Part shown: piece after piece, positions 1,588 through 64,000 of the stretch | How positions within the stretch are numbered: position 1 is the first letter of the stretch | How the letters are laid out: each line of letters begins with the position of its first letter | DNA from: Mobula hypostoma | Taxonomy: Eukaryota | Length of the DNA stretch: 64,000 nt | Assembly: GCF_963921235.1 (NCBI RefSeq) | Contig: NC_086108.1 | Span: forward strand, 79,796,001 to 79,860,000 | Direction of reading: 5' to 3' | Made by a program: the position numbers and the translations under genes | The notes under the pieces: model-generated | What the model was told of the DNA's origin: nothing | The model's database searches: none | Seen by the model: the letters and a program-made list of their open reading frames with translations, nothing else

Positions 1588-3104
1588 TGGAGTGAAGTGG
1601 GAAAGTGCATCTAAGGATCTGGCCAATAGAGGGGGTACTTCCACCATTCACATTTAAAATGACATCACTATCCCCTTAAGGCTAGTTAGGGATGGGCAAT
1701 AAATCCTGTTCTTGTCACCCATCCTTGTAATGCAAGGATGGATGCAATAAAAATTAAGATTGTAATAGCTCATTCGAAGAAACAAATTAGATCAGTGAAT
1801 TGTACGTTCTTTACAATTAGTGGGAATTATAGAACATGGTGGGAGTTGTATGCTAGAAAATATCAAATAACTTGTTGAAAAACATTTGTTTCCATATAAT
1901 TAACATTCTGCAATGTAATATTCGCAACTTACTATACATAACATATACACTGTAGAATTCAAACCTCTGGCTTGTGTAGTTCAGTGGCCCAGTAATTAAA
2001 GCCTTCAGGCTGTTCATAAAGGCTATGGGGGTGGGGACCGGTGTAGTTTGAAGAATTCCATCTTTATATAATCTAATTTGAATGCTGTTTTATAAATTCA
2101 TGAGTACATTAACATTTTAAATGCATTTTCTAGATAGATGGCTTCAATATTTGAGTCCATTTTTCTCCCCTCCCCCTCTCTGAAAGATAGAAATAAAACA
2201 GATGGCTGAAACAGCCAAAAGATCTGATCTCAGCATGAGACCTACTACAACTGTTTCCTGTGTGTACAGCTTAGGCCTCAAACTCTGTGTGTGGTATTAC
2301 CTGCTTCACAGACATGCCTTTGCTTCCCTTCTCCCTCCTTCACTGCCTCATCTTGTCCCCCCCCTCAGGCCAGCTCATCTAGCTCAATTACAAAGCAGAC
2401 AGTCAAGCGATTACTAGTCTTTAATTCTGGATTCAAACTAGCACCTTCACCCAAATGACAATGTCATCTTCCCATATTGCCAGCAGCACCATGTGTTCCA
2501 CATTAACTCCATTTACCCTTCTCCCCTTGACCCTCACTGATATTGCAATTAGCACCCTGTCTGTCACTTCCTCATACGGAATGCAGCAATGGTATGCAAT
2601 GATGTAAGACTAAAGAGAAACCCAGAGGCCAAATAGTCAACAAAAAAAAGCGAAGCATTGCCAATATTTAGAACATTTTTGTCAGAAAGATCAAATCTGT
2701 CTCCAATTCCTTTTCTCCCCCAGAGAGTAAGGGAAAGGAATAAGGCTATGTTAATATTGAGACGGTTTTTGGCCTTTGTACTTGAACCTGTTGTAATGTG
2801 TATTCTTTATTCTTGAATATAATCCCATATTTTCCCTTAAGCAGTCTCACATTTTGTGAAATATAGCATTATTGAAAAGATGGATGCTACTGTCTGCTGC
2901 CAAAGATGAATTTCAGCTTTGTCAGAGCTGCTTCCCTGACCAAACATTCCAGAAAAAAATCTAGAAACAACTGTGCATATTCATGAAGTACTTTCCACTT
3001 GTGATTCAGCTTAATCAAGCTCATTTTAAATCGAAGCCAGTCTGTTTCCATATGTTGAACTCACTATTTAATGCTATAATAACATCTTACTAGAGAAACA
3101 ACTA

Positions 3105-3340
3105 GACCATGGTGAATCTGTGGCATTCTCTGCCCAATGAAGCAGTGGGGGCTACTGCGGTAAATATATTTAAGACAAGGTTGGATAGATTTTTGCATAG
3201 TAGGGGAATTAAGGGTTATGGGGGAAAAGGCAGGTAGATGGAGATGAGTCCATGGCCAGGTCAGCCATGATCTTATTGAATGGCGGAGCAAGCTCGACGG
3301 GCCAGATGGTCTACTCCTGCTCCTGTTTCTGATGTTGTCA
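3105..3340 (+). mobile_element. CR1 LINE 3' end
   Basis: gtggtgaatctgtgg-like segment through tcagccatgatc...ctactcctgctcct matches the 3' ends of the CR1 copies at 41750-41970 and 52660-52870. Confidence 0.85.
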
Positions 3341-3632
3341 TGAAGAGTAAATGGGAAGTTCACGATTGAGAAATTAGATGATGTTTTTAGCATCTTATTC
3401 TTCTTCAATTGAATTTCGGGACACCTTGGATGACAAAGCAAATTAAAGGTTTTATTGGTCTTTATGATCACAACATCCTTCTGCAATTTCTCTCTGTAGT
3501 ATTAGCTCCATGGGACTGTCTTTGTATTTGCTTTCAGCTCTAAAGGGAGAACCTTGTTATCTATACCAATGGACTTCCTTCTCAATGTGCATGTTTTGTG
3601 GCAGTGTGATGGATGAAGAATTGGAGTGAAGA

Positions 3633-3945
3633 AGGGATTAGCTTTATTTGTCACATATACATCAAAACATAAATAAAGTGTCTTGTTGGTGTCAAATCAA
3701 ATCAGTGAGCATTATGTCGGGCAGCCCTCATGCCAACAAGCTTCCAGCGTCAACATAGCATGCCCACAACTCACTAACCAGTACGGTTCATCTTTGGGTT
3801 GTGGGAGATAACCGGAGAACCTACAGGAAACCCATGCTGTCACAGGGAGAATGTACAAACTCCTTACAGTCGATAGTGGGAATTGAACCTGATCTTACAG
3901 CTGGCTTTACATTAAGCTAACAGCTATGCTACCATGCCACCCAAA
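3633..3945 (-). mobile_element. V-domain (HE1-like) tRNA-derived SINE
   Basis: Reverse complement of the V-SINE central domain (gggagataaccggagaacctacaggaaacccatg...gggagaatgtacaaactcc); B-box complement gggaattgaacc. Confidence 0.75.
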
Positions 3946-4414
3946 CCACACTGGTATTGTAAAACATGAACTATTAATCTAATAACAAGAGTCTAAGTCC
4001 TCCTATGTCAGTTATGAATTTAATGCCATGCAATAAATTTAAATGTAGAAATTAGATCTTGTTTTTAGATTGTAAGACATAGTGGCAGAAGTAGGTCATT
4101 TGCCCCATTTAACCATGCCATCGTAGCTGATTTATTTCCCTCTTAACCCCATTCTCCTGCCCTCTCCCCATAAATGTTGACACCCCTACTAATTAAGTAC
4201 GTATCAACCTTTGTTTCAAACATACCCAATGACTTGGCTCCAGCAGCCATCTGTGCACATGAATTCCACTGATTCACCACCCTCTGGCTAGAGAAATTCC
4301 TCCTATTTTCTGTTCTAAAGAGGTGTCCTTCTGAGGCTTTACCCTCTGTCTCTAGACTCTCCCACTGTTGAAAATATCATCTTCATGTCCACTGTATCCA
4401 GGCTTTCAATGTTC

Positions 4415-4932
4415 TGAATCAGATTCAAAATCAGGTTTATTACCATCAGCATGTGACATGAAGTTTGTTAACTTAGCAGCAGCAGCAGAACAATGCAATA
4501 CGTAATATAGAAGAAATCAATAAATAAATCAATTACAGTATATGTATATTGAATAGATCAAAAATTGTACAAAAAACCCAGAAATACTGTCTATTAAAAA
4601 AGAGAGATAGTGTCCAAGGGTTCAATATCCATTTAGGAATCGGATGGCAGAGGGGAAGAAGCTGTTCCTGAATCACTGAGTGTGTGCCTTCGGGCTTCTG
4701 TATCTCCTACCTGATGGAAACAGTGAGAAAAGGGCATGCCCTGAGTGCTGGAGGTCCTTAATAATGGGTGCTGCCTTTCTGAGACACTGCTCCTTGAAGG
4801 TGGCCTGGGTACTTTGTAGGCTAGTACCCAAGATGGTGCTGACTAAATTTACACTCCTCTGCAGCTTCTTTCGGTCCTGTGCAGTAGATCCACCTCCCCC
4901 CCCCCATACCAGACAGTGATGCAGACTGTCAA
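4415..4932 (-). mobile_element. Rex1/Babar-like LINE 3' end inserted in CR1
   Basis: ORF 4673-4951 (KAAPIIKDLQHSGHALFSLFPSGRRYRS); same family as 13143-13650; possible TSD aatgttc (4408-4414, 4933-4939). Confidence 0.75.
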
Positions 4933-5629
4933 AATGTTCAAAATATTTCAATGAGATACCCCTTTCATTTTTATAAAATCCAGTGAGTACAGCCCAGAGC
5001 CATCAAACACTCCTTATACGTTAACCCTTTTATTCCTGAGATTCCTGAGTTTTTTTTTGCTTGTCGACCTTCTCCTGACGTACTTCAATGCCAGGACATC
5101 CTAATATGTCCAGTTCCTTCTGCAGACTCCCTGCTTCCTCAACACTACCTGCCGTTCCACCTATCTTTGTATCATCCGCAAACTTGACCACAAAGCCGTC
5201 AATTCTGTCATCAAGATCATTTACATATAATGTGAAAAATAGTGGACCCAACACCAAGCCCTGCAGAACACCCCTAGTCACTGGCAATCAACCAGAAAAA
5301 GTCCCCCTTATTTCCACTCTCTGCCTTTTTTGCAATCTTCTGTCCATGCTAGTATCTTTCTTGTAATATCATGGAACAGACTCTCCTTTGTCTATACTGC
5401 CTCTCAAAGGAATCCAATAGATTTGGCAGGGTAAGGTTTCCTCTTAAGAACCCCATGGTGACTTTGGCCTATTTTATCATGTACCTTTATAAGTACTCTG
5501 AAACCTCATCCTTAATAATCAGGTTAATAATAGGACTTGGGCTATATTATTATTATTTTTGTAAATGTATGTTTTTCTGCTATCATTATTACATGTGCTA
5601 TTTGTGCTGTGTGTTACTGTTGATATGTA

Positions 5630-7225
5630 CAAACCCCATTTCCAGAAAAGTTGGAATATTTTCCAAAATGCAATAAAAACAAAAATCTGTGATGTGTTAA
5701 TTCACGTGAACCTTTATTTAACTGACAAATGTACAAAGAAAAGATTTTCAATAGTTTTACTGACCAACTTAATTGTATTTTGTAAATATACACAAATTTA
5801 GAATTTGATGGCTGCAACACACTCAACAGAAGTTGGGACAGAGGCATGTTTACCATTGTGTTTCATCACCTTTCCTTTTAATAACACTTTTTAATCGTTT
5901 TGGAACTGAGGATACTAATTGTGGTAGATTTGCAATTGGAAATTTTGTCCATTCTTGCTTGATATAAGACTTCAGCTGCTCAACAGTCCGTGGTCTCCGT
6001 TGTCTGATTCTCCTCTTCATAATGCGCCATACATTTTCAATAGGAGATAGATCTGGACTGGCAGCAGGCCAGTCAAGCTCACACACTCTGTGTCTACAAA
6101 GCCACGCTGTTGTAGCCCGTGCAGAATGTGGGCTGACATTCTCCTGCTGAAATAAGAACGGACGTCCCGGGAAGAGACGTCACCTTGATGGCAACATATG
6201 TCTCTCTAAAATCCTAATATACGTTTCAGAGTCAATGGTACCTTCACATACATGCAACTCATCCATGCTGTGGGGACTGATGCACCCCCATACCATCACA
6301 GATGCTGGCTTTTGCACCTTTCACTGATAACAATCTGGATAGTCGTTTTCATCTTTGGCACGGAGAACTCGATGCCCGTTTTTTCCGAAAACTAGCTGAA
6401 ATGTGGACTCGTCTGACCACAGCACACAGTTCCACAGTCTTTCGGTCCATCTGAGATGAGCTCGGGCCCAGAGAACTCGCCGGCGTTTCTGCATAGAGTT
6501 GATGTATGGCTTCCTCCTTGCGTAATACAGTTTCAAGTTGCATTTCTGGATGCAGCGACGGACTGTGTTGAGTGACAATGGTTTTCCGAAGTACTCCCAA
6601 GCCCAGATGGCTATAATTGTCACAGTAGCATGACGGTTTCTTAGGCAGTGCCGCCTGAGGGCTCGAAGATCACACGTGGTTTCTGACCTTGCCCTTTACG
6701 CACTGAGATGTCTCTGAATTCTCTGAATCTTTTCACAATATTATGTACTGTAGATGTTGAAAGACCTAAATTCTCTGCAATCTTGCGTTGAGAAATGTTC
6801 CTTTTGAACTGACTAACAATTCTCTCACGAATTTTGGCACAAAGTGGTGAGCCATGACCCATCCTTGCTTGCAAAGACTGAGCCTTTGATGGACGCTACT
6901 TTTATACCCAGTCAAGATACCTCACCTGCTACCTGCTAATGCCTGCTTCATGTGGAGTCTTCCAAACTGGTGTTACTTGAATATTCTGTGCACTTTTCAA
7001 TCTTATTTTAACTCTGTCCCAACTTTTGTTGGGTGTGTTGCAGCCATCAAATTCTAGATTTATGTATATTTACAAAATACAATTAAGTTGGTCAGTAGAA
7101 CTATTGAAAATCTTTTCTTTGTACTTTTGTCAGTTAAATAAAGGTTCACGTGAATTAACATATTACAGATTTTTGTTTTTATTGCATTTTGGAAAATATC
7201 CCAACTTTTCTGGAAATGGGGTTTG
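5630..7225 (-). mobile_element. Full-length Tc1-family DNA transposon (~210-bp TIRs, TA TSD)
   Basis: TA|caaaccccatttccagaaaagttgg ... ccaacttttctggaaatggggtttg|TA; TIRs ~5630-5842 and ~7012-7225. Confidence 0.95.
5850..6862 (-). pseudogene. Frameshifted Tc1 DD34E transposase
   Basis: Segments MGHGSPLCAKIRERIV (HTH), VLWSDESTFQL, FQQENVSPH and WPAASPDLSPIENVW lie in different frames. Confidence 0.93.
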
Positions 7226-7289
7226 TATCTTGGACCCTGAGGTAGCTGTTTTGTTTGGCTCTATTTACATGTATGGTTACATGACAAGT

Positions 7290-7605
7290 GTGTTGGTGCG
7301 TGGCCAAGTGGTTAAGGCGTCGGTCTAGTGATCTGAAGGTCACTAGTTCGAGCCTCAGCTGAGGAAGCATGTTGTGTCCTTGAGCAAGGCACTTAACCAC
7401 ACATTGCTCTGCGACGACACCAGTGCCAAGCTGTATTGGCCCTAGTGCCCTTCCATTGGACAACATCGGTGGGTGGCGTGGAGAGGGGAGACTTGCAGCA
7501 TGGGCAACTGCCAGTCTTCCATACAACCTTGCCCAGACCTGAGCTCTGGAAACCTTTCAAGGCACAAATCCATGGTCTCATGAGACTAACGGATGCCTAT
7601 AATAA
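7290..7605 (+). mobile_element. tRNA-derived SINE with CORE-like domain and RTE-like tail
   Basis: A box tggccaagtgg, B box gttcgagcc, gtgtccttgagcaaggcacttaacc domain; 9-bp TSD atgacaagt (7281-7289, 7606-7614). Confidence 0.85.
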
Positions 7606-7788
7606 ATGACAAGTAAACTTGAACTTGAGCTCTTAATAATTAACATTCTACCAACTACTGAAGTCAGGCTAACTGGCCTATAATTTACAGTCCTTTGCCT
7701 CCTTCCCTTCTTAAAGAATGGAGTGACATGTACGATTTTCCAGTCCTCTGGAATCATTCCTGAGTCTGGTGACTCTTGAAAGATCACT

Positions 7789-9630
7789 ACAGTCATAGGG
7801 TAGTAGTGGAGAGTTATTTGTCAGATCGGAGGGCCATATCCAGTGGTGTTCTTCAGGGTGCTGGGTCCCTGGTGTGTGTCTTTTATATTAAGGATTTGCA
7901 TGAGCATATGGGTGGTCTGAATATTAGGATTGCAGGTGACAACAAAATTGGTAGTAGTGAAGAAGATGATCTAAGGTTACAAAAGGATCTACTGTAGATC
8001 AGTTTGAAAAGTGGACAAAGGAATTGCAGATAGCGTTTAATACCTGAAGATCCAGGGGTGCAAATACAAATACGTAGTTCCCTGAAAGTGGTAATACAGG
8101 CTGACGAGGTGGTTTAAGTTGGCACTGGTGAAGCATGGTGACTTCTTGTCCGTAGCTAATAAAACAAACAAAATTACTAACTACTTTATTAATTGCACTT
8201 TTTTTCTGTAAATGATCACTGCAGTCAATAGCCTGTAACTTCCCTTTCAGAGTTAAGCTTTTGAACCACTTATATGACCTGGCATTTTTGTGATGTGAAC
8301 TGAAGTGCTGAATGTGCAGGATGATTGCAGCATGGTGTGTATGTGCTGAATCGAAGCAGTAAGGCTGGGCCCGAGGGCAGGGATTGAGCCAAAGATTGGC
8401 CATTGCTGGTGCAGACTTGGAGCTGATTCAATGTGGCAGAACCAAAGTGAGGTAAGCAGAGTTGAGGTGGCAGAACCTCGCCCTGGGCCCAGGCCCGAGA
8501 GCAAGGTAAGACCCAAGGTTTGATCAATTTAAGTGCTGTGCTGTATTGGAAAGTTTGGGTATAGGCAAATTGAAGCAGCAGGGCCCAGGCCCGAGAGCAT
8601 ACAGAAGCGGCAGGACCCGAGCCTAAGAGCATGGAATGACCTGAAGTTTGGATGATTTAAGTGCCGGACCAGATTGTAAAGGTCAGGGTGTTGGGACCTG
8701 AGGCAAGGGATGGGCTCATTGTTCCGCGAGGTTTACTTGTCTCTGCACGGAACTGAGGCTGTGGCCTGTAACTAACAGGCTACTGGATCGGCTGCAGTTA
8801 TGACTGGCTTTGTGGCTGTGAACTCACTTTCTTCAACTTCAGTTGATTGCTTGCTTTTGTTGTTAACATGATTTGATTTTTTTTGCACTTTGGTTGTTTG
8901 ACGGTCTTTTTTTTTAAAGGTTCTATTGAGTTTCTTCGTTTTGTGGCTGCCTGTAAGGAGACAAATCTCAAGTTTGTATATAGTATACATGTCTTCATAG
9001 TAAATATACTTTATACTTTGAACTTTTGGAAGTATATAGCACATGCCTTCATCAGATGGGGCACTGAATACCTGAGTTGGGATATTATGTTCCAGCTCTA
9101 CAATATACCTGGAATACTGTGTGCTCTTCTTGTCACCATATCAAAGGAAGGATACAATTAAGCCAGCGAGGGTGCAGAAGAGATTCACAACAATTTTGCC
9201 AGGACTGGAGGACTTGAGTCATGAGGATAGGCTGAGACAGTGTTCTCTGGAGCAGAGGATGCCAAGAGGTGACCCTGGAGAGATTTATAAAATCATGGGG
9301 AGGTATCTTTTGCTGAGAGCAGGCGAATCTAAAACTGGGAGGCAAAGGTTTAAGGGGAAAGTGGAAAGATCAATGTGGACTTGGGGTGCGAGAAACTTTT
9401 TCGCACAGGGTCTAGTGACTATGAGTAACGAGCTGCGAATGGAAGTGGTAGAAATGGATACAATTACAACATTTAAAAGCCATTTAGACAGATTCATGCA
9501 TAGAAAAGGTTTAGAGGGATATGAGCCAAATGCAAGTAATTGGGACTAGCTCAGGAAGGCACTTTGGTCGGCATAGACGCACTGGGGGCAAAGGACTTGT
9601 TTCCATGCTGTATACTGCTATGACTCTGTT
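7789..9630 (+). mobile_element. Degenerate CR1 LINE 3' part (7789-8118 and 9035-9630)
   Basis: ORFs 7776-7997 (SSGVLQG) and 9121-9549 (RVQKRFTTILPGL...TFKSHLDRFM). Confidence 0.8.
8120..9030 (+). mobile_element. Non-coding LINE-tailed repeat with internal GC-rich repeats; second copy at 55986-56421
   Basis: 8620-9025 aligns by eye with 56000-56420; ends tactttgaactt; repeated gggcccaggcccgagagca units. Confidence 0.65.
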
Positions 9631-10411
9631 GCAGAAAGAAAATATTTGAGCAATAAAGACCTTTTTATCTTTCTCTTAAGTTTCTGCACATTATTCTCCC
9701 TAGCTTTGCCTTGTAAGTTGTGACTCATATTCTTCCTTCATCTTCGTGTCGCTGCATCGCAATCTTTACAGACACGTACTGTAACTTGCACTATGTCTGG
9801 ACATCAGAGTTGCGGAACTCCTCACGTCTCTGCTTTGTTTTCCTCCCACCCTTCCCACCCCTTAATCTGCAAGGTTTTAAAACTTGATAAAAACCCAAAC
9901 CACTTGGTATATTTTGTCTTCCTTCCTCGTCTTTTTCAATATTGGTGGTCCTGCATGATGGGCTTTAGTCCTCCAAACATATTCTCAAAGTAAATATAAA
10001 ATTAAAACCACAAGTCTCAACCAGTTATTAGTCTTTTCAAATGAATAAAAAATGAAGTTGTTTCAATGAAAGAGTACTCTGATTCCAATGTCCATGAAAC
10101 ATAAGGAGAATCACACAAAGATATGGCATAAAAGAGAGCATTCAATCCTTTGTGCCTATGTGGCTCTTTGAAAGAGATATTCTTTTAGTTCCTCTTTCCT
10201 GTTGCTATTACCAGAACACTGCAAAATTGTCCCCTTCCAGTGTTTAACTGATTTCCTTTTGAAAATTACTCCTTTTTATCTTTTATTCTTTTTTCAGAAA
10301 TGCATTACAGATCAGAGCAACTTGAGGCATAACTTTCTCTCCTTACCTTCTTTCATCCTTTACCTTAAATATGTATCCTCTGCCCCCAACTCTTCTACTG
10401 CTGGAAACAGT

Positions 10412-10700
10412 TCAGATTCAGAATCAGGTTTATTATCACTGACGTATATCATGAAATGTGTTGTTTAGCAGCAGCAGTACAGTGGAAGACATAAAAAATA
10501 CTGTAAGTAACAATAAATAATGCAAAAAGAAGTATGCTAGGTAGTGTTCAGGACTGTTCAGACTGCTGATGGCAGAGAGCAGGAAGCTGTTCATAAAACA
10601 TTGAGTGTGAGTCTTCAGGCTCCTGTACCTCCTCCGTGATGGTCGTAATGAGAAAAGGACATGTGAGGGTCCTTAATGATCGATGCCACCTTCTTGTAAT
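10412..10700 (-). mobile_element. Rex1-like LINE 3' end
   Basis: tcagaatcaggtttattatcac tail complement and ggaagctgttc...cctgtacctcctcc, as in 4415-4932. Confidence 0.75.
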
Positions 10701-11617
10701 ATTTCAATGCACAGATGTAATGAAATTATCTGTTTGAAAGGAATGCAATACAAAGTTTTCACTATGTTTTGGTATATATGACAATATTAAACTGATTTAC
10801 CAATTTACTCCTAATTATTATCCCTTTGTACCAAATTTGCATAAATTATCATTAATCCATTATGTCCACACTATCACTTCACCTCTACTTCTTGCTGTCA
10901 TTTGGTTTCCCAAGAGTGATTTTAACTTTTTTTTAACAGGAAATGCTAGTATCTGACACACAATCGGAGTGGACAACTTAATCACCTCAACACTGAACTG
11001 ACTCCACAACCTATTGCAACCCTCTCACGGGGGCTTGTATACGAACTTGGCTCGTTAGCTAACTCTGCTGGCAGCCAGGTGACTCAGCAGTGAGAAGGCC
11101 ATCTCTCATAAACAATATACGCCTACACTTGGTATGACTTGGGGTTCAACCAAACAGGAAAGTTGGGATGTTCCGATAAAGGAGCATTGATTGTCGTGAA
11201 TGCTGTGTAAATACTGCTTACAGACACAATTATTGGGCACCAAGAAATGACAGATCATACACCAGCATAAAATTATGAAGAAAATATACTTACCAATTTT
11301 CAACTTTATCAAACATTTAACAGGAAAAGAGAAGAAAGATAAAAGAGCCCATTACATTAAACCAGTCCAATGTGCACGTAAACTTTGGAGCTCATTTCTG
11401 GAGTAGTTGGGTGTATCACTTTACTTACACGCTGAACCCACATTCTGTGTGAAAGATACCAACCACAGTTCGGACTTCCCTCAAAGACCATCTCAAATGA
11501 ACAGGTTAACTCAGAAATATCGGCACTTCCTCCTTGAAGCCATTCATCTAAACAAAGCAACACACATAAAAAATGCTGGTGAATGCAGCAGGCCAGGCAG
11601 CATCTCTAGGAAGAGGT

Positions 11618-28220: not shown

Positions 28221-29753
28221 ATAGTTGCTGGGGACTTTCTTCAAGCAGGCTTAATTGAATTTCTGCTCAATTATCATCAACATATCACCTGCAGCACCAG
28301 GGGACCCAAGACAATCAACCACTATACACTATCTTAAGAAGTACCTACTGTTTCATCTCTAGACCACATTTTGGGAAATCTGATCCTGTGGTTGAACTGC
28401 TCCTACCTGCTTATGGAGAATCTAAATGAGTACACCATGGTTTCATGGACTTTATAAAAGTCAGTCATGGATGAGTGTGTTCCCACAAAATTATTTAAGA
28501 GTCTTCCCTGACCAGAAGCCCTGGATGAACCGGGAGATGCAAAATCCACAATCAGATGGCCAGATTAGTAGCATTCAGATCCAGCAACTGAGTAAAATAC
28601 ATGAGGTCCACGTATGACCTCTGGAAAGCCATCTCAAATGTGAAGTGCCAATTCTGGACCAAACTGGAATCACAGATGGATGCCTGACAGCTGTGGCAGG
28701 GCTTGAATGCTATCACCTCCTACAAAGTAACACCACGTGACATCTGTATCAACAAAGTTTTGTTCCCAAAATAGTTCAATGCCTTTTATGCTCATTTTGT
28801 CAAAACATTCACAAACTACTACAGCACTTGACAATCCTGTGATTTCAGTCTCTGAGGTTGACATTACTGTGTATTTAATATCTCAGTAATAATTGTGTAA
28901 TATTGTAAATATATCCTTTGATTAAGCATTCTTCGCTACTTAAATAATTCATTACAAGTTGTATGTCAAAGTCCGTAAAGTCCTAACGTCGTCACGCCAC
29001 CATGTGATACACTTAAATTAAAAAATGAAGTTGGACCCACATTGTGGATTCCTGTCTTTATCTTGCAATTTATTTTTTTATGTTTTGGAGTTACAAACAT
29101 AACAGTGGTGATGAACTGTTTTTAAAATGAACCGAGACAACTACAGTACCTACCTGCTGAAGTGCAGTGAGAAACAGTTGAGTAAAAAAATAATCACACA
29201 ACATATTTTCTTTCGTCAGAACAGCACATTTTCTTCACAGAAGGAAAGACAATCAATTTTCACAAAGGCAGAAAACAGAAGAATTCAGGAGATCATAACA
29301 GTGATCAGACAATCCAGCTGATAATAATCATAAAAAAGGAGCAGAAATGGCTAGCTACATCGGAAAAATTGACGCATTTGATTACACAAAAGATAACTGA
29401 ATATGTATACTGAACAGATTAAGCAGTATTTTAAAGCAAATGAATTAGCCCATGAGAAGTGAGTACCAGTTTTGCTGAGTGCATTGGGTTTAAAGGCATA
29501 CAGTTTGCTTAGAAATTTAACTGCTGCAAGCAAACCAGCTGAAATTAGCTTTGTTGATTTTGGGAAAGTAACGTAGGAACGTTTAGAACCAAAACCATTG
29601 TTGATTACAGACTGTTTCAGGTTTCATAAACAGAATCAAAAGGAAGGGGAGTCCATTTCATCTTACTTGGCTGGATTGAAGAGATTGTCTGAGCATTATC
29701 AGTTCAGTAATGGGCATAATGATGTACTGAGAGATCATTTAGTTTGTAGAACC

Positions 29754-30549
29754 TGTTGTAAAAAAAATACTACTTCTACTTATAACAATGCTTAGTGAGG
29801 CACAGAGAGATCTGTATTTACTGACAAGTACCTTTATTGTTCTAACTAACAAGTGCATGAAGTCATACACTACATACCTTGTGTGCACACCCGCTAAGTA
29901 TCCCTGACTCTCCTGAACAGTCAAAGAATAGCAAAGGTATTACCTGGGCAAAGGAGTTTATGCTGGCCAGGCGTTCCTCGTTCCGATTCACTACGTGTTT
30001 CACGTAGGGTTGCTCATGCTTGTATCTGCGATGGTTATTCTTCGAAGTTACCGCTACTGGCGCACACAAAGCATCCACTTTTATAGCCATTCCCTATCAA
30101 GTCAAATATCGCATTCCAGTGTCATTGGCCACAGGCCATATGTCTGTCCTTTAACACCTTGTTATTGGCTCTGCTCCAAGCCAGCATCAATTTATTGTCC
30201 TCGTCCCATCAAGCGACAGTCAATAATTTATGGCTTTTTGTTCTCAATCAGCAATGAGCTCGAATCAACCCCAACATTCACAAACCTGCATGTTATAGCC
30301 AACCAGAGAACATCTCACAAATAACTTATTTGGAAATGATCTCCAGTCCAACAGATTACCTGAATCATTGTGTCTTCTTTAAAACATTGATCAAGCCCAG
30401 CATGTCAAGCTCACGAAATGGAGAATAGAGTGTTTTCACAAAATGGCAGCCTCCATCTCCAAGCATGCGGCAAGAACAAAGACTGCTTCTGTTGTTCTTG
30501 ATTCATTTGAATTCACTGATTTGTAGATTGTCATTCTTTTTGGCCAACA
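29754..30549 (-). mobile_element. Solo LTR of a different family inserted into Gypsy gag
   Basis: TGTTG...CAACA termini, TSD aacc/aatc. Removing it restores gag as seen at 60721-60780. Minus-strand CCAAT (~30125, ~30165), TATAAAA (~30079-30085) and AATAAA (~29833-29838). Confidence 0.82.
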
Positions 30550-31029
30550 AATCTTACAAGAAGGCATTCAAAAACATCTCCTAACTGAAGCACAGCTTAC
30601 ATTTAAAAGAGCAGTTAAAATAACAATCAATGGAAACAGCAGACAGAGACAGAGTTGCAGTCAAGAATGTAAGTGAGTGTGAACAGAATTGCAATGTCTA
30701 AACAGAAATTGGCCTGGCTGAACAAATTGTGTTACTGTTGAGGCAGGGGCTCACATACACCAGACCAATGCAGTTTAAAGCTGAAACTTGCAGGAAATGC
30801 AGCAAAGTAGGACACATATAAAAAGCATTCCAGGCATAAAAAAATAAATGAACTATATAGGGAAGAGAAAAAGATTTTAAAAAGTCAAGTTGCAGTTTCA
30901 AAAAGTGCACTCATCTGCATGCTGTTGATGAAAAATCAGATAATTATGAGAATGACACATGACTGGGCAGCCTTGGGATTTACAATGTGAAAACTAACAA
31001 TAGAAAAGTAATATGGCTTACATCAGAAG

Positions 31030-31240
31030 AAGAAGAAAGCCCTTAACTCCCAGTGGAGTCATTCGGATGCCGTCATGATGGCGCATTTTTAGCAGGCTTT
31101 CTTATTTTTACGAGGCCAATTTGCTAGCTCGACGCTCAACCCAGCACGGATGGAAAGCGTGCAAGGGAGCCAGCTAGATTCGAACTTGGGAGCCTTCGCT
31201 CCGAAGTCCGGCGCTGATGCCACTATGCCACCAGCCAGCT
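31030..31240 (-). mobile_element. tRNA-derived SINE with (ctt)n tail
   Basis: A/B box complements ccactatgcca and gattcgaac; TSD tta(c/t)atcagaag at 31018-31029 and 31241-31252; same family as 37127-37321. Confidence 0.85.
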
Positions 31241-31334
31241 TTATATCAGAAGTGAAACGCAAATTCTGAAATAACTAATAGAGTCAACTGAAAGTGAATT
31301 AAGAAAGGTACTGAGTGATGCCACTACTATCTCC

Positions 31335-32005
31335 ATGCTGTACACCATAAACTATTGCCCAACAGATGGCAAGCAGGTACTGATGCCAACCTCTGTGCCT
31401 CATGTTGGAAAGCTTATTGACCAAGGAAGGACCCTGCTGCTCAGAGGATTCATGAAAGTGATGAAAGCAGTGGTCTGATTACAACAGTTTTTGTAGGCAA
31501 CATATCTGAGAAAGCTTCTGATATGCTAATCAGGCAGTTACTTGCAGAATGAGGCTTGGTTTTAAACTGGAAGAGTGTTCAATGAGCTTCAGGAAAGTTA
31601 CATAGATTCAGCTTTTGGTTTTATAAAGAACCAAAATCTCCTCTGTGTGCATTAAGGATATTGCATGCACTTCGAGAGCGAGACAAAAAGCTACTTGTAA
31701 AAGTAGATGTGAAGACCAAAGCCCAGCTGGGTGAATGGAAGGCCAAAAAGAAAGGAATCAAAGGATGTATGAAAGCAAAGGATTTGCGAGTTGATGTTGC
31801 AGACCAAGAGGAGAGGTCAGATTGTAAAAGGAGCAATAAAAGGATTAATAAAGGAGTATTCCAGGGAACTAAATGCAGCTTTAAAAGATCAAGATACATA
31901 TCCTAGAAAGAACAAAAGGACTGGAAGCAAAAGCAAAAGAAGCCAGAACCGGGAGAGAAGTATGGATCAAAGTAGATCCAGAGGCAAAAGCAAAGAGAGG
32001 GTGAG
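31335..32005 (+). pseudogene. RBM25: Processed (intronless) partial pseudogene of RNA-binding motif protein 25
   Basis: Translates to VLMPTSVPHVGK..PRKD..ITTVFVGNISEKASDMLIRQLLAE*GLVLNWKSVQ*ASGKL..F.FYKEPKSPLCALRILH...KKLLVKVDVKTKAQLGEWKAKKK and TKRRGQIVKGAIKGLIKEYSRELNA..PRK, matching the vertebrate RBM25 RRM region as I recall it. Stops at 31550 and 31583; frameshifts near 31420 and 31795. Confidence 0.92.
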
Positions 32006-33582
32006 GAAAGGTGTCCAAAGCTGTCAGAGCTGCTCCTAACACCACCACAGAGAAATCCCCAGAGCATGAGATTGTTTTCATCATCACAAATCTCACCTGC
32101 CAGGCACCTACACATACATAAGTTGAGATGCAATCTACATTGAGTTGGAGTTTATAGCTAATCAGGGAGGACTGTTGTGTATTTAATATTTGAGTAATAT
32201 TGTTAATATATTGTTTGTTTAAGCATTCTTGTTTGATTAAATAATTCATTATGGGTTATATGTGAAAGTACATAAAGGGCATACCTCATCACGCCTCCAT
32301 GTGATATGTGCCCACCTCACTTAACGTAAAAAATTAAGTTAGACTCATATTTTGGACTCACATCTTTCTCTTGCAATTAGTTTTTATGTTTTGGAATTAC
32401 AAAGCACAATAGATATGAGAGCAACCTTAAGTAACGTGACCTCACGGAACGCATCCGGCCCCGATGAGGTAGCTGACCGAGTACTGAAGACCTTTGCTGA
32501 TCAACTGGCTGGAGTGTTCCCTGATATTTTCAACCTCTTGCTTCAGCAGTCTGAGGTACCCACCTACTTTAAGCAGGCTTTAAATTATACTGGTGCCCAA
32601 GAACAACATGGTAACCTGCCTTGATAGCTATTGTCTAGTAGCACTTGCATCCATGGTGGTGAAGTGCTTTGAGATGAAAAATACCAACTCATGCCTGAGG
32701 AATGACTTGGATCGATTCCTATTTGCCTGCTGTCACAACAGCTCTACAGAACGTGTCATTTCATTGGCTCTCCACTCAGCCCTGGAACGGTGAAGATGCA
32801 TACATCAGGATACTCTTCATTGACTACAACTCAGCATTCATCTCCTCAAAGCTAATCAGTAAGCTCCAAGATCTCAGTTCAATATTTCTTTGTACAACTG
32901 GATCCTCGATTTCCTCACTTGCAGACTCCAGTCAGTTTGGACTGGCAACAACATCTCCACAATCTCCATCAGCACAGATGCACCGCAAGACTGTGTGCGT
33001 AGCCCCCTGCTTTACTTGCTTTATCCTTATGACTGAGGCTAAGCACAGCTCCAATGCCATATTTAAATTTGCTGATGACACCATTTCTGGCTGAAGCAAA
33101 GGTGGCGACTAATCAGCATATAGGAGGAAGACTGAAAATCTGGCTGGATGGTGCCACAACAATAACCGCTCCACTTAATGTCAGCAAAACCAAAGAGCTG
33201 ATTATTGACTGCAGGAGGAGGAAACCGTAGGTCAATGACCAGTTCTCATCGGGGAATCAGAAGTGGAGATGGCCAGCAACTTTAAATTCCTTGACTTTAA
33301 CATTTCAGAAGATCTGTCCATGGTTCAGCATGTAAGTGCCATTACGAAGAAGGCATGGCAGTGCCTCTACTTTCTTAAAAGTTTACAAACATTTGGCATA
33401 TCATCTAAAAATTCGACAAACTTCTACAGATGCTCAGTGGAGTGTACACTGACTGGTCCCATCACGGCCAGGAATGGAAACACCAATGCTCGAACAGAAA
33501 AGCCTACAAAAACTTTATCAAGCAACACACATGAAAGATGCTGGTGAACGCAGCAGGCCAGGCAGCATCTCTAGGAAGAGGT

Positions 33583-37126: not shown

Positions 37127-37321
37127 TGTAGTGGCATCAGCACCGGACTTCGACGCAAGTGGTCCCAAGTTTGAATCTGACTGGCTCCTTGCATGCTTTT
37201 CTTCCATGCTGGGTTGAGCATCGAGCTACTTTATGAGAACTTGGCCTCATAAAAAGCAATCAAATGCTATGGAAATGGCGAAAAAGCTGCCTGATGCACC
37301 ACAAAGCATGAAAAGGAACAG
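37127..37321 (+). mobile_element. tRNA-derived SINE (same family as 31030-31240)
   Basis: tgtagtggcatcagcaccggacttcg...gtttgaatc; TSD catatt(t/c)cc at 37118-37126 and 37322-37330. Confidence 0.8.
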
Positions 37322-59887: not shown

Positions 59888-62350
59888 TGTTGCATATTTA
59901 TGTTGCAGTAAAATTTGAGTAATCTTGTAAATATATTGGGTGATTAAGTATCCTTGTTCATTTAAATAATTCATTAGGGGTTACATGTATAGGAGTTACA
60001 TGCATTAAATACATCATCATGCTGCCAAGTGATACGTGCGCATCTTGCTTAAAGTAAACTTGAAGTTAGGCTCACATTTCAGACTCCCATATCTTCATTT
60101 GAATTAGTTTAATGTGTTGAAGTTACAAAACATAACATTGGTGATAAAACGAACCTGAGACAGATATTGACCTGGTGAAATGCAGTAAGACACTCAGACT
60201 GAAAAAAGTGCAGCAAGGAATGTTGAGTGAAAACCACAGCCCAGCACATGCAGACTGCGGAGTTTTAAAAAAGGTAGTCAACTAAAGAATTCACGGGTTC
60301 ATAATCAGTGAGTAATGGGTGATAATAAGCATGAAAAACAGCAGGAATGGGTGGCTACATCAGAAAGATAGACACGTTTGAGTACACAACGGCTACCAGG
60401 ATTTTATATACAGAGCAAATTGAACAGTATTTTGAAGTAAATGAAATAGCAGTTATAGCCAACAAGTACCAATTTTGCTAAGAGTTTAAAGGCATACAGT
60501 TTGCTTGAAGGTTGACTGCTCCAACCAAACTAGCAAAAATGAGCTTCGCTGATATTGTCAAAGTAATACAGAAACACTTAGAATCAAAGCCATTATTGAT
60601 TGCAGAACGCTTTAGGTTTTGTAAGTTGAATCAAAAAGGAAGGGGAGTCTATTTCAGCTTATGTGACTGAACTGGTCTGAGCATTGTCAGTTTGGTAATC
60701 GTCTTAATGATGCGCTGAGAGATCATTTAGTTTGTGGAATCTTGCTAGAACGCATTCAAAAATGGCTCCTAAGTGAAGCACAACTTGCTTTTAAAAGAAG
60801 AGTTGAAATTGCTGTATCAATGGAAACAACAGATGGAGGCGCAATTGAATTGCAGTCGGGAATGAAAGTGAACGTGAACAAGATTGCAGTGTCTAAACAG
60901 AAACTGGCTGGGCTAAACAAATTGTGTTACTGTTACTGCAGGGACTCACATACACCAGACCAATGCAGATTTAAGGGTGAAACTTGCAGAAAATGCTGCG
61001 AAGTAAGACATATACAAGGAATGTGTTGGGCTAACAAAAATACACAGTCTGAACAGAGAAGAGAAAAGGCTAAAAAGCAAAGCTGCGGTTTCAAAAAGAG
61101 CACTAATCTGGATGTTGTGAATAAAAAATCTGAAACAAAGGAGAGTGCCACGGGGATATGTAGCCTTGAGATTTACAACGTAAATCTCAAAACAATTAAA
61201 ATGGAATGAGACACCTGTTCAGCTGTTTCAGTTCTCCTATGGGAATGACATTAGTAACAGTGAAATACAATAACCAACAATCCACATTGGGCTTGTATGT
61301 GGTAAAAACCTGAGTGTCAGCATTGCGGGGACGTGATTGGCTGAGACAACTGCAACATGATTGGAGATCCATTCACAACTTGCGAGCCACATCCTCTGCA
61401 ATGAAGCTACCTGAAAGTGAATTAAGAAAAGTGCTGGATGATGCCACAACAGTGTTCGAGAATGGCAAGGAAAACTCAAACATATCAAGGGTAAAATAGT
61501 GTTAAATAAAAATGCGCACCCAAGTTTTGGAAAACTCATTTAGTTCCTTATACCATCTGTGATAAAGTAGCCAGTGAGCTAGTTCACATAGAGGCTTCAG
61601 GAACTCCTTGCAAGGTTGAGTAGAGCCCATGGGCAATGGCAATGGTCTCAGTAGCCAAGAGGATGTATACGTCAGGATCTGTGGAGATTTTAAGGTCATA
61701 TCAACCCAGTACTGGAAGTAGATCAATACATTCTGTTCAGGATAGAGGATAACTTAAAAGAAAACTTTCTGGTGGAAAACTCTTCAGCAAAGTGGACTTA
61801 GCTGAAGTCAACTTGCAGATGGAGTTGGAGAGTCCAATGTGTTTCTCACCATAAATACTTACAAAGGGCTTTGTCACTATAATAGGCTACATCTGCACTC
61901 TGGCACAAAGCTACGTTTCAAGTGCTGCAAGGTTGCCCGGGCACCTGGTGTCACCTGGATGACATCATTGTACCGGTAAGCATGACAAGGAACATCTCCA
62001 AAACCTCAAGACAGTGTTAAGAAGATTAGAAGATTATGGGCTCAGAGTATGACAGGATGTGTATGAACTCTTTAAACCAAGCATCACTTACTGTGGTCAC
62101 ATGATTGACACACAAGGATTAAACTAGTGTGCTGAGAAAATTCAAGCAGCGCGAATGCCCCAAGGCCAAAGGACATGTCACAGCTGTGGTCTTTTCTAGA
62201 ATTTGTCAACTATTATTACAGGTTCCTGCCAAACCTGTCTATTGTGGTCCACTTCTTGAACTCATTACTGCAGATTGGGAAGAAACAGCAATAGACAAAG
62301 CGGTGTGAACTGGCTTTCCGAAATGTGAGGGAAATGGTGACATCAGACAT
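59888..62350 (+). mobile_element. Second Gypsy copy of the same family (5' LTR, PBS, gag, decayed pol RT)
   Basis: LTR 59888-60137, PBS tggtgata, gag from 60347, ORF 60742-61209 with CYCY..SHTPDQCRFKGETCRKC knuckle, RT motifs VRICGDFK, FSKVDL, HLDDII. Confidence 0.9.
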
Positions 62351-63855: not shown

Positions 63856-64000
63856 AACTCAGACATATCAAGGGTAAAAGAGTGTTAGATGAAAATACCA
63901 CACACAAGTTTTCAAACCCTGTCTGGTTCCTTATACCATCCTTGATAAAGTAGCCAGTGATCGAGATCTCATGGAGGATGGAGGAGTTCATTCCAAGGTT
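63856..64000 (+). mobile_element. Gypsy pol fragment (continues beyond window)
   Basis: Homologous to 61473-61617 (aactca.acatatcaagggtaaaa...ttccttataccatc..gataaagtagccagtga). Confidence 0.8.

Follow-up and report, generated by a model that had tools for sequence, protein, structure and literature searches.

A Ty3/Gypsy-derived family in Mobula hypostoma that carries spliced RBM25 mRNA sequence in place of its pol core

LTR-mediated retroposition in animals has been described with all of its structural features, including secondary retroposition of its products (Tan et al. 2016, PMC5131818). The RBM25 family reported here resembles the retrocopies presented in the cited sections of that study: a partial spliced mRNA replaces part of an internal open reading frame, both LTRs are kept, microsimilarity is found at both switches, neither a poly(A) tail nor a target-site duplication (TSD) accompanies the captured piece, and non-autonomous re-retroposition was both predicted and seen. 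It differs in scale, as the amplified cases given there comprise 18 sites for nine retrocopies, whereas about 2,300 or more copies, with deletion subfamilies, are found here; the species set in those sections holds no cartilaginous fish. Maize Bs1 is likewise an LTR element with pieces of host mRNA and with switch points common to all copies (PMC5131818, PMC13317346). However, according to these sources Bs1 has one to five copies, combines pieces of three donor genes and has a hybrid ORF that is considered functional, whereas the RBM25 family has one donor, thousands of copies and no sign of function. Crocodilian ERVs carrying KIT-ligand or nectin3 mRNA are also ancient, amplified vertebrate LTR captures shared between species (PMC4299795). 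According to the cited part of that report, they are retroviral, hold whole ORFs under purifying selection, number nine and six copies and have kept pol; the RBM25 family, in contrast, is of Gypsy type, holds a partial coding sequence that replaces pol, and has decayed neutrally. The mechanism is thus already published, and the copy number of the RBM25 family is far above that of the published cases compared, as far as the cited portions go. No paper on an RBM25-Gypsy family was found in a search of the openly accessible literature; an entry in Repbase or Dfam, or a larger published case, may already exist.

The window (the whole stretch of DNA analysed, 64,000 nucleotides) lies on contig C50 of the 3.48-Gb genome (G000:C50) and holds one copy of this family at 28865-32411 (Table 1). 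This copy is a decayed Ty3/Gypsy element and, by its LTRs, PBS-like site, polypurine tract (PPT), 5-bp TSD and the pol order of its partners, a non-autonomous derivative. Its LTRs belong to one family and lie where the preliminary description had placed them; they are 76% alike (K2P 0.209), and their TG...CA ends, intact in other copies, are mutated here. The PBS-like TGG-start motif is present in most of seven other copies compared. Matches to the gag zinc knuckle (zf-CCHC, E 0.059) and to the RRM in the insert (RRM_1, E 0.0057) stay under the cut-off. The limits proposed earlier for the RBM25 piece, 31335-32005, were too narrow, the actual extent being 31319-32009. About 390 nt of the captured piece (the end of exon G, exon H and most of exon I) are missing from the window copy, a deletion common to L017, L004 and L020, and six junctions are retained (B/C, C/D, D/E, E/F, F/G and I/J). 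The copy is dead, as had been concluded from two stops and frameshifts: the RRM frame has two stops, and deletions of 1 nt and 8 nt were seen.

Table 1 Features of the window copy and of the sister copy used for comparison (positions are those of the window)
Feature	Position	Strand	Basis or remark
TSD, left copy (GACAT, 5 bp)	28860..28864	+	Flanking 5-mers compared
5' LTR	28865..29104	+	LTR alignment
PBS-like site, TGG-start motif directly after LTR	29105..29120	+	Motif; candidate
Decayed gag, weak zinc-knuckle match near end	29349..30950	+	74-76% to sister copy
Later 800-bp repeat insertion within gag	29750..30549		Skipped in other copies and in relatives' contigs
Later high-copy short repeat, SINE-like by eye, replacing most of protease region	31030..31276	-	79% to 37129-37255
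5' pol remnant upstream of switch	31277..31318	+	84-88% to pol-bearing copies
5' switch block, 12-nt similarity between pol and host mRNA, across exon B/C junction (31328/31329)	31319..31330	+	Alignment
RBM25 exons C (48 nt), D, E, F and most of G, spliced, RRM included	31329..31917	+	Host-gene alignment; junctions at 31376/7, 31546/7, 31604/5, 31765/6
RBM25 exon I end spliced to first 28 nt of exon J	31936..32009	+	Alignment; 3' switch block is 32000-32009
Gypsy integrase C-terminal tail and 3' untranslated part, shortened here	32010..32163	+	Joined out of frame to RBM25
Polypurine tract	32164..32172	+	Sequence
3' LTR	32173..32411	+	LTR alignment
TSD, right copy (GATAT, 4/5 match)	32412..32416	+	Flanking 5-mers
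Pol-bearing sister copy running on into RT, 3' part lost; comparison partner, outside the chimera	59896..62340	+	Alignment

Several other repeats surround or interrupt the element. The 800-bp insertion in gag is itself a repeat (summed depth of ~2,000-6,500 in relatives), and the SINE-like repeat, two copies of which are in the window, reaches a summed depth of 23,000-102,000 in relatives. This repeat looks tRNA-like by eye. Pfam gave no match for the 800-bp insertion (minus frames), the RT of the sister copy or the flanking LINE, and ARAGORN found no tRNA. The sister copy is truncated after RT, and another piece of the same pol region restarts at 63856-64000. On the right, the element is flanked by a frame that translates as LINE RT-like (family assigned by eye). 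Contigs of relatives skip the whole element (joints 28857 to 32479-32495) and join its two flanks, indicating that it inserted into an older repeat.

A protein search with the insert returned 229 of 303 candidates at E<=0.001; the best match, at 75% identity with E 1.5e-38, was an RBM25-like protein of the shark Heptranchias, and RBM25 accounted for most of the named hits. The host gene, found with the C-terminal part of the protein, lies at G000:C1:99.79-99.84 Mb; that part matched four exons at a single locus on the minus strand (G000:C1:99.79-99.80 Mb; 4 matches among 9 candidates), while a PWI-family search for the host gene gave other genes, RBM25 not among them. Nine host exons (B to J) have canonical AG/GT ends and an open frame. 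Exon-by-exon alignment showed that the eight introns between them, 28,147 bp in all, are absent from the captured sequence, in line with the earlier view that an intronless insert derives from a multi-exonic parent. The longest copies hold the last 10 nt of exon B, exons C to I and 28 nt of exon J (mRNA positions 41-1112). Although the reading of the insert as RBM25 was borne out, the stretch MLYTINYCPTDGKQ corresponds to a 48-nt host exon that the preliminary description had not recognised. This in-frame exon C (host G000:C1:99832586-99832633, L065/L066 region) is present in 88 of 94 copies and in two related isoforms (P0121 and P0122), one of them from a shark, and is absent from the bony-vertebrate proteins inspected. 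Use of an alternative acceptor located 12 nt before the exon that follows exon C would lead to a stop in the host.

Similarity to the sister copy had been thought to end near 31326; it continues to 31330, through a block that is also found in the host mRNA. At this 5' switch, pol and host mRNA are identical at 8 to 11 of 12 positions (mean 9.0) in eight pol-bearing copies, three of 11 having been dropped for a weak anchor; random pairs give 3.1/12, and the 12 nt upstream and downstream average 6.4 and 3.6. The pol frame continues into the RBM25 frame at this junction, and at the 3' junction RBM25 meets the integrase tail out of frame. There, a purine-rich block matches at 9, 9, 9 and 6 of 12 positions in the four partners that retain the region. 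The blocks at both switch points were delimited by eye, making their chance values (7e-4 for 9/12) optimistic. A stretch that straddles the host B/C splice junction and leads on into exon C can occur only in spliced RNA or in cDNA made from it. Between the switch sites, partners hold ~2.4-2.6 kb that the chimera lacks, with the pol order RVT_1, RT_RNaseH, Integrase_H2C2, rve in three partner copies combined. The earlier statement that pol had been replaced therefore holds for the RT-RNaseH-integrase core, and not for the 5' pol remnant and the integrase tail, which remain. In three pol-bearing partners (L080, L081 and L078), large internal deletions of pol rejoin at the same 3' tail site; the Gypsy family thus also includes plain deletion derivatives.

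The features of an LTR-mediated retrocopy are thus found together: an intronless, partial copy of a multi-exon gene, a discontinuous element, microsimilarity at the junctions, and neither poly(A) nor TSD. In our judgement, the family very probably arose by a double template switch onto a co-packaged spliced mRNA, followed by normal integration and copying in trans. An active Ty3/Gypsy element would have packaged spliced RBM25 mRNA along with its own RNA, and the reverse transcriptase would have switched from element RNA to mRNA and back at the two short stretches of similarity, so that ~1.07 kb of mRNA took the place of the ~2.5 kb encoding RT, RNaseH and integrase. The chimera, retaining LTRs, PBS, gag and PPT, would have integrated normally and been transcribed from its LTR; its amplification suggests that the RBM25 piece was co-transcribed with the LTR. 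No RNA dataset was listed as containing the window copy, a result that is uninformative as to its expression. Pol-bearing relatives would then have copied it in trans, with immediate amplification in the same burst as these partners to ~2,300 or more copies; deletion subfamilies would have arisen in the purine-rich part along the way, before neutral decay set in. In one of 94 copies (L175/L016, G000:C67:49.97 Mb), 160 nt of extra integrase DNA precede the usual 3' switch, a sign of secondary recombination with a partner or of a second switch, which fits continued co-packaging with partners.

The possibility, raised in the preliminary description, that the chimera had been amplified into a non-autonomous family proved real, and the family is large. 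A search of the genome with the insert gave 3,371 first-look candidates; of the 40 that were scored, the 39 others showed 75-82% similarity. In all 29 other fetched loci, Gypsy joins RBM25 at the same site. A 23-nt pattern of the chimeric junction has 1,489 genomic matches with <=3 mismatches (control 2), and all 29 distinct exact matches run on into RBM25. As 35 of 54 independently found copies passed this filter, correction sets a floor of ~2,300 chimeric copies. None of 19 pol-bearing loci matches the junction pattern. Conversely, a 23-nt pol pattern from immediately beyond the switch matched 3,228 times (control 8) and was passed by 15 of 19 partner loci and none of 94 chimeras; the chimeras make up 32% (raw) or ~36% (corrected) of family copies at the switch site. 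They are dispersed over many contigs. In 19 of 24 copies with both ends placed, the 5-bp flanks match at 0.55 of positions vs 0.30 when shuffled (0 of 2,000 shuffles as high), with 4 or 5 bases matching in only 7 of the 19. These duplications show that the copies integrated separately, in the manner of integrase. The copies sampled were the best-scoring ones, with no random draw, and no intact autonomous partner was present among the 10 pol-bearing copies fetched.

The chimeras and their pol-bearing partners belong to one burst, as mean LTR K2P is 0.238 both for 23 of 41 chimeras (the fetched stretch of 17 did not include an LTR and one had too little aligned) and for 8 of 10 partners. Copies are 86.9% identical to the host (82.5-89.9%, window copy 84.9%; 77 of 84 copies with enough overlap) and 17.7% apart mutually, and their tree is star-like, with 95% of its length terminal. 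All sampled copies have decayed neutrally: private non-synonymous and synonymous rates are equal in 87 copies (0.057/0.057 for transitions and 0.0169/0.0171 for transversions; ratio ~1). Only one near-fixed non-synonymous difference separates the copies from the host, and there they side with the shark outgroup, so that amplification followed soon after capture. Near-fixed synonymous differences number 21, vs 15.4 expected for one neutral lineage (P 0.10). A short form (33 copies, insert of ~620 nt) carries diagnostic changes in 29 of 32 and 31 of 32 copies that are rare in 14 longer ones (1/14 and 2/14), indicating that master elements evolved by deletion. Multiples of three make up 42 of 78 internal deletion events, the largest class (450/453 nt) keeping the frame and a shared class of ~157 nt not; from microhomology pairs alone, 50-71% would be expected in frame, and the purine-rich alignments are ambiguous.

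In the origin proposed above, the RBM25 cargo would be a passenger, and the success of the chimera may have come by default, as copying is expected to be efficient for a shortened element that retains every cis signal, regardless of its cargo. A different role for the cargo, which we regard as improbable, is that it conferred an advantage, through an in-frame Gag-protease-RRM fusion or through RBM25 RNA that protected the element against small-RNA silencing or disturbed the host's own RBM25, which would account for a pol-less element reaching a third of the family. RBM25 loss de-represses transposable elements in mouse ES cells, according to the cited part of PMC12925954, and a captured fragment could blunt the silencing of an element, as proposed for gene capture in maize (10.1101/777037); the same part of the maize study found no higher copy number for capturing elements. 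Selection on the cargo in master elements was considered and found no support, the synonymous excess having a P of 0.10 and the linked subfamily changes being non-synonymous. Neither the intact ORF nor the purifying selection of a functional retrogene was seen, the window copy being broken and N/S being ~1 over 87 copies, and no intact fusion protein was present among 93 protein hits of 156-497 aa. Because the copies radiated in a star-like burst, hardly any changes from the master line are left; a cargo advantage is compatible with the data but gains no positive support from them, and tests of selection on it have low power. Stop-free frames of 284 and 235 codons cross the junction in L163 (2219-3073, minus strand) and L164, as expected by chance among thousands of copies. 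A second Gypsy family carries SUDS3, with at least 119 intronless-length Sds3 matches (150 scored); 11 of 15 fetched loci (L183-L197, on many contigs) lie downstream of the gag of a related Gypsy family (70% gag match). Membership of these chimeras in the RBM25 family was rejected, only a 130-nt gag stretch being alike, at ~70%. If a cargo advantage were true, the SUDS3 family would point to host silencing factors having been captured repeatedly as a means of evading silencing.

LTR-mediated retroposition, as first suggested for this locus, is also supported over the alternative that a LINE-made RBM25 retrocopy landed in a Gypsy element, lost its poly(A), its TSD and most of pol by deletion, and was then amplified as a non-autonomous LTR element. 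LINE remnants flank the window element, showing that LINE activity existed, and decay could hide the hallmarks: with each copy ~11% decayed, a short poly(A) or a TSD that the founder lost by deletion would no longer be visible. However, both ends of the captured piece lie inside coding exons and both show pol/mRNA similarity, at the 5' end across a splice junction, and the long copies stop after the first 28 nt of exon J, with several exons of the gene still to follow. No run of >=6 A or T occurs in the window between 31280 and 32173 and no TSD was found around the insert, as had been noted before, while the missing stretch of pol means that Gypsy DNA is not contiguous across the insert. With the best match to RBM25 and nine parental exons, none of the three observations that would have spoken against LTR-mediated retroposition (another best match, a single-exon parent, or a poly(A) tail with TSD in contiguous Gypsy sequence) was made, and the LINE route is very unlikely.

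Just as unlikely is a donor in the form of an older RBM25 processed pseudogene, used as RNA by template switch or as DNA by recombination. The data establish a spliced donor and not which molecule it was, and the surplus of synonymous sites separating most copies from the host points in this direction; that surplus is not significant, though, and a decayed donor would have passed on many non-synonymous differences instead of the single near-fixed one. Repeated independent captures at a hotspot (a recurrent switch site is described for BLASTOPIA in the cited sections of Tan et al. 2016, PMC5131818, and the short form could reflect a second 3' switch) or segmental duplication (one C96 locus pair shares >300 40-mers), in place of one retrotransposed chimera, are least likely of all, since the copies share the same mRNA, the same isoform (with exon C), the same base position at the 5' junction and the subfamily-diagnostic changes, have separate TSDs and are dispersed over many contigs; the derived changes in common and the separate target sites go far towards refuting this reading. 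The two C96 loci, L121 and L131 (G000:C96:22.42 and 23.60 Mb; exact 40-mers), probably arose by a recent segmental duplication and were merged into a single entry; in L121 the RBM25 piece occurs as a tandem pair.

The capture of RBM25 mRNA by the Gypsy element can be placed relative to several lineages. Where host and Heptranchias codons differ, the copies are host-like at 6 of 7, and at 12 of 12 in the comparison with P0122, so capture followed the split of the host line from the Heptranchias and P0122 lines. Four other, related organisms (X5, X8, X14 and X20) hold the family, with a summed depth of ~6,400-11,500 over 31283-31753 compared with ~8-11 for single pieces (4 of 24 runs examined). 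One X5 contig bridges the flank and the 5' LTR (28699-29048; 32 differences and 10 gaps in 341 nt), and the window insertion therefore predates the split from X5. In the stingray Hypanus sabinus, gene model P0167 (383 aa) has the Gypsy-RBM25 junction at its start, followed by a GTF2IRD2-like transposase part; it probably represents nested elements annotated as one gene. An absolute age was dropped, the sole rate at hand being per generation and from one shark (7e-10, in the cited part of PMC10587355).

LTR-mediated capture, known from cases with single or few copies, can thus found a non-autonomous vertebrate family of thousands of copies, one accident having led to an estimated ~1.5-2 Mb of RBM25-like DNA (copy number x insert length). 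Copies of this kind would be mistaken for independent pseudogenes of LINE origin or would end up in gene models, as P0167 illustrates. The cargo-bearing and pol-bearing copies of this one family form a large matched sample in which the benefit of a captured sequence can be tested, and the family preserves an ancient germline mRNA isoform of RBM25 together with its switch points.
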